Shown one piece after another: positions 20,609-23,140 of a stretch of 30,624 nucleotides of DNA. Source of the DNA: Escherichia phage 186; sequence record NC_001317.1, one strand, 5' to 3'. A program made the translations under genes and the position numbers. Each line of letters begins with the position of its first letter. Positions within the stretch are counted from its first letter, which is position 1. Under the pieces are notes generated by a model. It was not told the origin of the DNA and did not search any database. It was given only the letters and a program-made list of their open reading frames with translations.

Positions 20609-20827
20609 ATGTTTCATTGTCCGAAGTGCCATCATGCCGCACATGCGCGAACAAGCCGCTATCTAACCGAAAACACGAAAGAACGCTACCACCAGTGCCA
20701 GAACATCAACTGTAGTTGTACGTTTATGACAATGGAAACGATAGAGCGCTTTATTGTTACTCCGGGAGCCATTGACCCGGCACCGCCTCACCCGACTGTC
20801 GGTGGTCAGCGGCCATTGTGGCTCTGA
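20609..20827 (+). CDS. B: Ogr/B-family zinc-finger late-gene transcriptional activator
   Basis: ORF-track start 20567 replaced by the ATG at 20609, giving a 72-aa protein MFHCPKCHHAAHARTSRYLTENTKERYHQCQNINCSCTF... with the C-x2-C...C-x4-C zinc-binding pattern of P2 Ogr. Symbol B follows my recollection of phage 186 nomenclature. Confidence 0.9.
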   Translation: MFHCPKCHHAAHARTSRYLTENTKERYHQCQNINCSCTFMTMETIERFIVTPGAIDPAPPHPTVGGQRPLWL

Positions 20828-20844
20828 TAAATTTCCGCTAAATG

Positions 20845-20866
20845 CCCGCCGCGTGCGGGTTTTTTT
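20845..20866 (+). terminator. Rho-independent terminator after the late activator gene
   Basis: CCCGC-CGCGT-GCGGG hairpin followed by TTTTTTT, 18 nt after the stop codon. Confidence 0.65.
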
Positions 20867-20932
20867 ATGCACTCAGGAAAGTGGCGGTAAAAAATCCACC
20901 GCCATTCTATCGCCACTCGAAAACGAGGCAAC

Positions 20933-20957
20933 AAAAAGGCCACTCGAGAGAGTGGCC
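20933..20957 (-). terminator. Minus-strand hairpin plus U-run just beyond the att core (terminator for leftward int-operon transcripts; sib-like position)
   Basis: Perfect 8-bp stem GGCCACTC/GAGTGGCC with a 4-nt loop; on the minus strand it is followed by TTTTT. Lies on the far side of the att core from int. Confidence 0.45.
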
Positions 20958-20984
20958 TAACTGTATGTATTTACTACTTAAATT

Positions 20985-21030
20985 TGGTGGCCCCTGCTGG
21001 ACTTGAACCAGCGACCAAGCGATTATGAGT
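20985..21030 (-). other. attP core: 46-nt segment identical in form to the 3' end (anticodon loop to CCA) of a tRNA-Ile(CAU)-type gene
   Basis: The minus strand reads ACTCATAATCGCTTGGTCGCTGGTTCAAGTCCAGCAGGGGCCACCA: anticodon loop with CAT, T-arm GGTTCAAGTCC, acceptor 3' strand and CCA. No 5' half of the tRNA is present, so this is an attachment-site fragment, not a tRNA gene. Confidence 0.8.
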
Positions 21031-21156
21031 TCCTACAAGAACAACCGAAAATCAATAGTATGCGTTATTTATCATTGACATAGATTGCCATTGTTTGCCA
21101 ATAATTACCTATTATTCGCCATTTCTACCGCCACTTTATCGCCATTCTATTATCTG

Positions 21157-21408
21157 TTACTCAGAACCATCGCCGACATAGGTTCCATCAGGTGCGAGAT
21201 GATATCTTCCACCAACATAAGTCCCATCTGGGGCAAGTGTTGGGCGGCCAGCAACATAACTTCCATTTGGCGCTAAGCGTGGAACGCCACCGACATAAGT
21301 TCCATCGGGTGCAAGGCGTGGTGCTCCTCCTCCAACATAAGTCCCATTAGGGGCAAGCATAGGTTGTCCGTAAACATAGGTACCATCAGGTGCTAATCGA
21401 ACTGACAT
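21157..21408 (-). CDS. Small tandem-repeat protein (six roughly 13-aa LAPDGTYVGG-type repeats), function unknown
   Basis: 83-aa ORF with a strong SD (GGAGG, 4-nt spacer) 14 nt downstream of the integrase stop. Protein is MSVR followed by repeats LAPDGTYVYGQPM / LAPNGTYVGGGAPR / LAPDGTYVGGVPR / LAPNGSYVAGRPT / LAPDGTYVGGRYH / LAPDGTYVGDGSE. Confidence 0.6.
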   Translation of the reverse strand: MSVRLAPDGTYVYGQPMLAPNGTYVGGGAPRLAPDGTYVGGVPRLAPNGSYVAGRPTLAPDGTYVGGRYHLAPDGTYVGDGSE

Positions 21409-21422
21409 ACAACCTCCATAAC

Positions 21423-22433
21423 TTATTTGCTGTTAGTAATGTGAACTAAAGGATTTAGTTTAACTGCATCCTCTAAATGGTCGGGTGCAAAGTGCGCATA
21501 TCGCATGGTCATTTTTATATCTGTATGGCCGAGTACGCGCTGCAACACCAAAATATTACCGCCATTCATCATAAAGTGACTAGCGAAGGTGTGACGTAAA
21601 ACGTGGGTAAGTTGTCCTGCCGGTAGTTCGATACCTGTTCTTTCCAAAGCTGACCGGAACGCGCCATAACAATCACTGAACAACCGGCCCTTTTTATCAT
21701 CAGGCAGAGACTCATAGAGCTCTTTGCTGATTGGGACGGTGCGATTTTTTCTACCTTTCGTGTTGGTGTATGTGATTTTGTATTTCGCGAGTTGGCTTTT
21801 TCTCAGACTCTCGGCCTCAGACCACCGTGCGCCAGTTGCGAGACAGATTCTTACCACGGTTTCTAAATCAGGGTGGTCATGTCGGTTACACTCTCCGAGC
21901 AGTTGCGAAATTTGGTCGTGAGTTAGCCAAGTCATTTCCATTTCTTCTGTGCGGAATGGGCGCATATTTTTTAGTGGGTTTTCACCCTTCCATTCTCCGA
22001 GGCGGTTTAGCTCATTGAACACCGCCCGGAAGTAGGCCAGCTCAAGATTAAGCGTGCGAGGCGATACCTCTTTCACTCTGTTTGAACGGGCATACTCACC
22101 TTTTAACCGTTTTTCTCGGTAGCGGGAAAACATCTGCGCATCGAAATCGCGTGCGAGTGGTTCGCCCATACACTCAAAAGCATGGTGCATGGCTAACTGG
22201 CGTTTCAAACCATCTTTCAGTGTAATGCCATGAGCGCTATACCATGAATCAACCAGCTCTTTTAACGTGCGCCTGTCTTCCTTTTCTTCCTGCCACGGGT
22301 TTTGAACGGTGTACTGCTCAAACGCCAGAGCCTCGCCTTTAGTAGCGAATTTCTTTCTGATACGTTTGCCTTTTGCACCGTTTGGGTAGAGTTCACAAAT
22401 CCAACCGCCAGCCGGATTTTTACGGACGGTCAT
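21423..22433 (-). CDS. int: Tyrosine integrase
   Basis: 336 aa with tyrosine-recombinase motifs: LATGARWSEAESL (Arg), HVLRHTFASHF (His-x-x-Arg), LGHTDIKMTMRYAHF (His and catalytic Tyr). Adjacent to attP; its start overlaps the repressor stop. Confidence 0.95.
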   Translation of the reverse strand: MTVRKNPAGGWICELYPNGAKGKRIRKKFATKGEALAFEQYTVQNPWQEEKEDRRTLKELVDSWYSAHGITLKDGLKRQLAMHHAFECMGEPLARDFDAQMFSRYREKRLKGEYARSNRVKEVSPRTLNLELAYFRAVFNELNRLGEWKGENPLKNMRPFRTEEMEMTWLTHDQISQLLGECNRHDHPDLETVVRICLATGARWSEAESLRKSQLAKYKITYTNTKGRKNRTVPISKELYESLPDDKKGRLFSDCYGAFRSALERTGIELPAGQLTHVLRHTFASHFMMNGGNILVLQRVLGHTDIKMTMRYAHFAPDHLEDAVKLNPLVHITNSK

Positions 22434-23011: not shown

Positions 23012-23140
23012 TTCGATAAAACCTATTTACTATCTCTCAATTGGGAGATATATTTTGGCTAAACCCACGCAATTGATGGCAAGTGTTGGCAAACAGAGTC
23101 AAATCAATTGCAAACTTTGGCTAATAGGGAATCATGCAAT
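23012..23140. promoter_or_regulatory. Lysis/lysogeny switch region: divergent promoters for cI (leftward) and apl/cII (rightward) with operator-like dyads
   Basis: 129-bp intergenic region containing the palindrome ATCTC-TCAATTGG-GAGAT (23022..23039), three CAATTG hexamers (about 23029, 23067, 23096) and a direct repeat TTTGGCTAA (about 23044 and 23114). Confidence 0.6.

Follow-up and report, generated by a model that had tools for sequence, protein, structure and literature searches.

Within the 30,624-nucleotide stretch of Escherichia phage 186 DNA analysed here (NC_001317.1; the window), we find that the interval between the rightward Ogr/Delta-type zinc-finger gene (186 gene B; Pfam Ogr_Delta) and the leftward integrase gene int is, with a probability of about 95%, the phage attachment site (attP) of coliphage 186, a complex site in the style of lambda and P2 for a heterobivalent tyrosine integrase (Int). 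The gene order around the site is that of P2-like phages. As in other complex attP sites, a tyrosine integrase gene lies next to a core that is duplicated at both prophage junctions (attL and attR), repeats unlike the core are found in both arms, and tandem sites for a recombination directionality factor (RDF) lie between core and arm. As in elements that target tRNA genes, the phage carries the 3′ part of the gene from the crossover to its end, and an intact tRNA is found at one junction.

The attP of coliphage 186 is already known, and nothing in the feature is novel. The site, its tRNA-Ile target, its arm repeats and the operators for the phage protein Apl have been described since the 1990s, so that finding them again has little value as discovery; the reports named for the attP of coliphage 186 (Eganvirus) are reportedly those of Dodd, Reed and Egan in 1993 and of Reed et al. 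in 1997. The 186 attP is moreover a routine tool of genome engineering, on the vector pOSIP-KO. The value of the analysis is that of a check, in that a tRNA-fragment attP and part of its arm-site pattern had been recognised correctly from the raw sequence, in a reading made from the letters of the window (the sequence-only reading). It also adds small refinements: a 12-nt in silico bracket for the crossover, a probable replacement terminator carried by the phage, and the observation that the arm words track Int and the operator words track Apl.

The identity of the interval is based on published fragments and on vector arms. The published 186 pR-pL oligonucleotide (PMC7498355 supplement) is identical to window 23053-23128, and the published 186 ‘attP 5’ Apl-binding fragment (PMC7498355 supplement) corresponds approximately to 21063-21122, when noise from optical character recognition in the text is allowed for. 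Seven engineered K-12-type genomes contain the two arms of the site (20872-20984 and 21031-21156) at 100% identity, separated by 4-5 kb. Five of these seven strains (CM2, CM5, CM13, CM19 and CM56) are documented constructs made with pOSIP-KO, a vector with the integrase and attP of coliphage 186 (PMC10030836); in one engineered genome, an FRT scar is fused directly to window ∼21172. The published 186 attP and the window agree on all points that can be compared, namely the sequences, the vector arms, the use of ileY and ileX, the GCCAc/tt consensus and the five Apl operators, and we detected no difference between them.

The core of the site is a fragment of a host tRNA gene, on the same strand as int; the sequence-only reading had named no strand for it.

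20985-21030, minus strand: attP core (common core), a 46-nt copy of positions 31-76 of a tRNA-Ile(CAU) gene

The minus strand of this segment reads ACTCATAATCGCTTGGTCGCTGGTTCAAGTCCAGCAGGGGCCACCA. When gene position n is placed at window 21061-n, with the ileX gene taken as 76 nt, the core runs from the final base of the 5′ anticodon stem through the anticodon loop and 3′ anticodon stem, then through the variable loop and T arm, to the 3′ acceptor strand and the CCA. The sequence-only reading had described it as the anticodon loop to CCA end of a tRNA-Ile(CAU) gene, and this description was confirmed when we looked for the host gene. In an in-register comparison, the core is identical at 46/46 positions to Escherichia coli ileX, which lies between mug and nfeF, and at 45/46 positions to K-12 ileY, annotated as tRNA-Ile(CAU). 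The sole difference from ileY is at gene position 67, which is A in ileY and G in the core; the pairing partner of this base, position 6, is T in ileY and C in ileX. With a query shifted by one base, we found 45/45 matches (100%) in 5421 of 5426 complete E. coli genomes. ARAGORN called no complete tRNA gene in the window, where only positions 31-76 are present, and thus the segment is a fragment rather than a gene. A functional phage-encoded tRNA gene was for the same reason rejected, as ARAGORN finds no complete cloverleaf anywhere in the window.

The core also varies among relatives in the manner of a tRNA. We aligned 186 with six related phages (EtG, Yersinia phages GCS667 and MDG45, Salmonella phages BIS20 and PHB48, and Erwinia phage ENT90) and found that the T-stem of the core differs among them through paired changes. 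The Yersinia-type T-stem (ACTGG…CCAGT) is native in complete tRNA genes of Yersinia (including Y. pestis), Serratia, Photorhabdus, Proteus and other genera; in a scan of contigs for two non-E. coli T-stem variants, this one and that of EtG (Erwinia), all of the matches listed (120) were of the Yersinia type.

Several observations bear on the choice between the two host loci. The core query matched 8116 places in 5421 E. coli genomes, with a median of one place per genome, and over half of the complete E. coli genomes therefore seem to carry a single tRNA-Ile(CAU) locus with the core sequence. Possibly, ileY is an accessory copy within a region rich in islands (ygaQ-ypjC-ypjA-ssrA). The core matches ileX perfectly, yet ileY is the ‘186-1’ site and the location of both natural E. 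coli prophages that we examined. The three bases that follow the CCA (AAT) are common to the phage and ileY, and this shared extension is one candidate reason for a preference for ileY.

Integrated copies show that the core is where phage and host DNA are joined. Phage 186 integrates at ileY and ileX of MG1655 (PMC3448106, Table 1), and among the pOSIP-KO strains, CM56 is assigned to site ‘186-2’ and the other CM strains to site ‘186-1’ (PMC10030836). We find the CM56 insert between mug and nfeF, that is, in ileX, while in the other CM strains and in a derivative of MG1655 the insert lies next to ypjC, that is, in ileY, in agreement with both the site labels and the table. Natural 186-like prophages of ∼30 kb are present at ileY in E. 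coli strain 10 and in isolate EC-1639. In both, an entire 76-nt tRNA (anticodon CAT) stands at the attL end, and next to it come the B-side arm, gene B and the late genes. The opposite end holds cI, int and a cargo open reading frame (ORF), and beyond these the int-side arm and a tRNA 3′ fragment, which together form attR. The core is present at both prophage ends in lysogens. ARAGORN called complete 76-nt CAT tRNAs at attL in L004, L006 and L007, and called no tRNA at attR in L008 or L137-L141. In six metagenome contigs, the int-side arm (123-126 of 126 positions identical) is fused to displaced tRNA-Ile fragments from three host neighbourhoods. The structure of these junctions indicates that the tRNA is regenerated at attL and that the 3′ part of the host gene is displaced to attR. 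The proposal that integration restores the 3′ half of a tRNA at an ileX- or ileY-type locus therefore holds, and when we looked for members of the family at a site other than a tRNA gene, the natural, metagenomic and vector insertions were all in tRNA-Ile genes.

Three further points were noted at the junctions. The ileY lysogens carry a hybrid tRNA in which a T6·G67 wobble pair replaces T6-A67 (window 20994; L004 3498-3573; L005 2763-2838). The T-arm of the EC-1639 prophage core, GTTGG/CCAAC, is foreign; on metagenome contigs L139 and L140, the host fragment has it as its native T-arm. Finally, the Klebsiella phage records OK490408, OK490461 and others begin at the equivalent of window 21031, with an arm identity of 90-93%, and look like prophage predictions that were cut at the boundary of the att core.

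The arms that flank the core contain short repeats. The sequence-only reading had pointed to the 10-mer GCCATTCTAT as a direct repeat that flanks the core. Indeed, the window contains two exact copies of this 10-mer and no others, 20901-20910 and 21141-21150 (plus strand), the first starting 84 bp ahead of the core and the second 111 bp beyond it, so that both the exact copies and their distances were given correctly. When up to one mismatch is allowed, however, there are 3 matches where 1.4 would be expected, a count reached in 15 of 100 shuffles; on its own, the 10-mer is not significant. The conserved unit is instead the 8-mer RTGGCGRT, with five exact copies inside 270 bp around the core, and one weak copy: two exact copies and the weak one on the int side, and three exact copies, one of them inverted, on the B side. 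The clustering of the 8-mer is far outside expectation, as we found at most 3 copies per 270-bp span in 300 first-order Markov simulations (Poisson P ∼2.5e-9 per window).

21138-21145, minus strand: putative Int arm-type copy ATGGCGAT, outermost on the int side, invariant in 7/7 aligned phages
21127-21134, minus strand: putative Int arm-type copy GTGGCGGT, int side, 11 bp from the 21138-21145 copy; fits tgccGCCActt
21116-21123, minus strand: weak third arm-like copy ATGGCGAA on the int side, again at 11 bp spacing; overlaps the last Apl operator
20909-20916, minus strand: putative Int arm-type copy GTGGCGAT, B side, invariant in the 7 phages
20898-20905, minus strand: putative Int arm-type copy ATGGCGGT, B side, 11 bp from the 20909-20916 copy
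20881-20888, plus strand: putative Int arm-type copy GTGGCGGT, inverted, B side, kept in 6/7 phages

The RTGGCGRT copies are invariant in the aligned phages, except for the inverted copy, which is part of a 16-nt inverted match between 20878-20893 and 21122-21137. The 10-mer can be explained by these units: its right-hand occurrence consists of the last 5 nt of the outermost int-side copy plus 5 non-conserved nt, and its left-hand occurrence straddles the copies at 20898-20905 and 20909-20916. The TCTAT extension of GCCATTCTAT is not conserved in the relatives.

The view that these repeats are arm-type sites for Int is supported by their fit to the published consensus, since the arm direct repeats of 186-type phages are given as tgccGCCActt (PMC3448106) and Int arm sites are drawn in the 186 attP (PMC7498355). 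Between 186, GCS667 and BIS20, identity over Int residues 1-55 is 98%, and none of the three has a change in RTGGCGRT. The arm-type interpretation made from the letters is supported, with the correction that the unit is RTGGCGRT rather than a 10-mer present twice; it had missed the Apl operators, a site resembling that of integration host factor (IHF) as well as the terminator, all of which are described below.

It is very improbable that GCCATTCTAT and RTGGCGRT serve a different protein, such as Apl, IHF or a host factor, or are a by-product of coding. The lack of significance of the 10-mer across the window would be in keeping with such an origin, and in the relatives the int-side copies lie inside the int frame (…NPLAVSGDKVAVEM…), so that their conservation could be due in part to constraint on the protein. 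However, the 8-mer is equally conserved on the non-coding B side, the inverted copy included, and 186 has retained its int-side copies although they are no longer coding. Moreover, the Apl word TGGCAA differs from RTGGCGRT and co-varies with Apl, whereas RTGGCGRT is fixed along with the N-terminus of Int, and the literature both assigns the tgccGCCActt repeats to Int (PMC3448106) and draws Int arm sites in the 186 attP (PMC7498355).

The region between the core and the int-side arm-type copies contains sites for two further proteins. For the binding of Apl at attP, and for the presence there of IHF sites and of Int sites in both core and arms, we rely on the literature (PMC3448106, PMC7498355).

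21075-21121, minus strand: five operators for Apl, the excisionase and RDF, at 10-11 bp spacing, between the core and the int-side arm copies
21050-21062, plus strand: IHF-like site AATCAATAGTATG, matching WATCAANNNNTTR at 12/13 positions, between the core and the Apl operators

Read on the plus strand, the operators are TTGACA (21075-80), TTGCCA (21085-90), TTGCCA (21095-100), TTACCT (21105-10) and TCGCCA (21116-21), the last of which overlaps the weak arm-like copy ATGGCGAA. They fall inside the published Apl-binding fragment (PMC7498355 supplement), and the operator word on the minus strand, TGGCAA, recurs at pR-pL. In BIS20, the operator word has become TGATAA at both attP and pR-pL (the cI-apl intergenic region), and BIS20 Apl is only 70% identical to 186 Apl, with a changed helix-turn-helix. 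The comparison of BIS20, GCS667 and 186 indicates that the operator block tracks Apl while RTGGCGRT tracks Int, which supports the assignment of the operators to Apl and of RTGGCGRT to Int. The Salmonella phages BIS20 and PHB48 (L012, L013, L015) both keep a 186-type Int and the arm repeats and have a diverged Apl (70% identity), with TGATAA at attP and at pR-pL; judged from these sequences, they constitute a natural specificity swap of the excisionase and switch regulator.

With respect to IHF, the exact consensus WATCAANNNNTTR is absent from the 186 att region, and the relatives read AATCAATAGTTTG at the IHF-like block, a conserved block that matches at 13/13 positions. IHF sites are present in the 186 attP according to Fig. 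1 of PMC7498355; from the match and its conservation, we infer that IHF contacts bases 21050-21062.

The junctions of natural lysogens also allow the crossover to be bracketed within the core. Sublocation classes are distinguished among the sites that integrases use in tRNA genes, and the present site would fall at the anticodon loop.

21019-21030, minus strand: predicted interval containing the strand-exchange (overlap) region, gene positions 31-42, from the EC-1639 polymorphisms

The anticodon loop, CTCATAA, occupies 21023-21029 (positions 32-38). Phage and host are identical from position 31 on, or in ENT90 from position 32, with which the anticodon loop opens. In lysogens at ileY, the base at position 67 is the phage-type G at attL and the host-type A at attR. 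The EC-1639 prophage is more informative in that its attL has T43, the T-arm GTTGG…CCAAC and G67, while its attR has C43, the T-arm GCTGG…CCAGC and A67; T43, the phage type, is invariant in 7/7 aligned phages. Thus, the polymorphisms at 43, at about 50-64 and at 67 are all of phage type at attL and of host type at attR. The start of identity at position 31, together with this partition from position 43 on, places the exchange within positions 31-42, that is, the anticodon loop and adjacent stem bases, and the sites of cleavage would lie in this interval. The 46-nt identity block in principle permits exchange anywhere inside it. An exchange elsewhere in the block is nevertheless highly unlikely, because position 67 is already of phage type at attL in ileY lysogens, because positions 43 to 67 of EC-1639 are of phage type at attL and of host type at attR, and because the block starts at the anticodon loop in all 7 phages, as expected if the phage needs to carry only what lies 3′ of the exchange point.

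The host ileY allele of EC-1639, assembled from the 5′ part at attL and the 3′ part at attR (L007 1425-1500, L008 2620-2665), has A28 and C43 where K-12 has G28 and T43. An A28·C42 mismatch in the anticodon stem of this allele is thereby implied.

The junction data already refute the idea, of negligible probability, that the tRNA-like segment is what remains of a decayed tRNA gene of the phage and takes no part in recombination, the true crossover being elsewhere: many phages carry tRNA genes, and a relic would likewise give no intact tRNA with ARAGORN, but the segment is an exact duplication at both ends of natural prophages and vector insertions, the arms separate precisely there, and a fragment of ∼300 bp with this segment suffices for integration on pOSIP-KO.

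On the tRNA strand, a terminator scan found a G+C-rich hairpin that starts 26 nt downstream of the CCA.

20927-20958, minus strand: predicted intrinsic terminator with a 9-bp stem, AGGCCACTC/GAGTGGCCT, and loop TCTC, followed by TTTTGTT

The RNA folds with -19.9 kcal/mol (z = -4.6). Both stem and T-run are kept in 7/7 phages, with variation in the loop and, at one outer pair, a change of G-C to A-T. The native ileX and other host tRNA-Ile loci each have their own hairpin directly after the CCA. Based on these sequences, termination of the regenerated gene at attL is most likely due to the phage hairpin, while the host hairpin stays with the displaced fragment at attR.

Taken together, the observations suggest the following course of recombination. 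Int, encoded just upstream on the same strand, would bind the core around the anticodon-loop sequence of the tRNA and would also bind the RTGGCGRT repeats on both flanks. With the DNA bent by IHF, attP would recombine with its identical counterpart in a tRNA-Ile(CAU) gene of the host, either ileY (‘186-1’) or ileX (‘186-2’), through strand exchange at or next to the anticodon loop (window 21019-21030). With an exchange at this place, the host would supply the 5′ part of the tRNA (positions 1 to ∼31) and the phage the rest through the CCA, along with the terminator hairpin, to give an intact gene at attL; the original 3′ part of the host gene and its terminator would be displaced to attR, beside int. 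Excision would additionally require that Apl coats the five operators spaced at 10-11 bp between the core and the int-side arm repeats.

Some points limit the identification of this interval as the 186 attP and must be set against it, none of them a contradicting result. First, the identity with the 186 attP itself depends on the published fragments and the vector arms. Second, the binding of Int to RTGGCGRT is based on conservation, one comparative paper and one figure legend. Third, the IHF-like site of 186 agrees with the consensus at only 12/13 positions. Fourth, the crossover bracket comes from one natural lysogen and assumes neither mutation nor gene conversion after integration. Finally, an Rfam scan of 20800-21250 by E-value returned no tRNA match, and so offers no independent support, a miss that is expected for a 46-nt fragment; its only matches were below threshold and were driven by two terminator hairpins.

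To place the site among known systems, we compared it with other attachment sites. The attP sites of EtG, GCS667, MDG45, BIS20, PHB48 and ENT90 are alike in having a tRNA-Ile(CAU) 3′ core, arm copies in the same position and orientation, the terminator and the IHF-like block. They differ from 186 in the T-stem of the core, which varies, in the RDF word of BIS20 and PHB48 (TGATAA), and in that the 3′ end of int overlaps the int-side arm and an extra CTGGCGGT is present, where 186 has a 305-bp spacer instead. P2, the core of which is short (about 27 bp), has its attP at the same genome position, in the order ogr/B - attP - int - repressor. The P2 site is similar also in its heterobivalent Int, its direct arm repeats on both sides, the IHF sites given in the literature and an RDF, Cox, which also acts as a regulator of the switch (PMC3448106, PMC7498355). 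However, the arm consensus of P2-type phages is tgTGGaCa, as against GCCAct for 186, and the P2 arm word is also given as TGTGGACA; P2-type phages integrate mostly between genes, whereas 186 integrates in a tRNA gene (PMC3448106).

The lambda attP (POP′) is a complex site with Int sites of both the core and the arm type, bends made by IHF, and tandem RDF (Xis) sites spaced by one helix turn in one arm (PMC7498355); the 186 site, with its putative arm-type and IHF-like sites, resembles it. It differs in its 15-bp core, located between gal and bio rather than in a tRNA gene, in that no gene fragment or terminator is needed, and in that its arm sequences are unrelated. HP1, which integrates in tRNA-Leu (PMC3448106), and tRNA-gene islands are alike to 186 in that a tRNA gene is split and the element restores it, so that the regenerated gene and the displaced fragment mark the two ends (Islander database, PMC4383910). 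Both differ from 186 in the target tRNA and in the arm motifs. HP1 uses the anticodon-loop sublocation.

The terminator hairpin has further properties. In the unintegrated phage, it lies downstream of int and of an 83-amino acid ORF, on the same strand and across attP. A dual role that depends on the state of the phage can be imagined, in which the hairpin would end or process int read-through across attP before integration and serve the tRNA at attL afterwards; we regard this as a doubtful proposal. If true, it would amount to retroregulation similar to that by lambda sib, built from a tRNA terminator, and int transcripts of the lysogen would run into host DNA. The stem halves GAGTGGC/GCCACTC (20937-20958) repeat the word of the adjacent arm-type copy GAGTGGCGAT (20909-20918) and are invariant in the 7 phages. 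This likeness could be a coincidence or could point to a second constraint, and GAGTGGC, which resembles the arm-type word GAGTGGCG, could hypothetically provide an additional contact for Int. The invariance of the stem is compatible with a dual role, with contact by Int or with a plain terminator.

The B (Ogr-like) gene has an intrinsic terminator of its own at 20844-20868 (plus strand), GCCCGCCGCGTGCGGGT followed by a T-run, which stands directly before the B-side arm repeats and is kept in the relatives. A promoter-like match on the minus strand (20931-20904, 9/12) was dismissed as chance, since the number of such matches equals that expected from shuffles.

The other side of the site is occupied by int and by a segment found in 186 and absent from its relatives.

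21423-22433, minus strand: int, a 336-amino acid tyrosine integrase that acts on attP (Pfam Int_N 8e-34, Phage_integrase 2.8e-25)
21146-21450, minus strand: 186-specific 305-bp segment between int and the int-side arm, absent from the six related phages

The Int of 186 is 95-97% identical to that of the related phages. In EtG, GCS667, MDG45, BIS20 and PHB48 (L009-L013), the int frame runs through the int-side arm repeats (…NPLAVSGDKVAVEM…), with one extra copy of CTGGCGGT that is absent in 186 (window 21105-21145, 21423-21450). The inserted segment gives the Int of 186 a different C-terminus, …NPLVHITNSK. Since the attP fragment of the vector ends near 21172, the 305-bp segment is dispensable for att function.

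The segment contains the 83-amino acid ORF (21157-21408, minus strand), which consists of six tandem 13-amino acid repeats (MSVRLAPDGTYVYGQPMLAPNGTYVGGGAPRLAPDGTYVGG…; consensus roughly LAPDGTYVGG). Its sole family match is a weak one to Pfam PD40 (5e-6). For the ORF and its segment, we found no match in PHROGs, by tblastn against 50,697 phage records or by megablast against 5,426 complete E. coli genomes, and no large homology search was made. An exact-sequence look-up places the protein in 47 blocks of assemblies, from metagenomes and other sources; six contigs were shown, and in each the ORF directly follows a 336-amino acid Int, with a complete 186-type switch region before it in the four longer ones. 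Cargo varies at the slot between int and the int-side arm, where other prophages carry unrelated ORFs. In the strain 10 prophage, the slot holds a hypothetical ORF of 1464 nt on the strand opposite to int (L003 18322-19785), and in EC-1639, an ORF of 906 nt on the int strand (L008 1585-2490).

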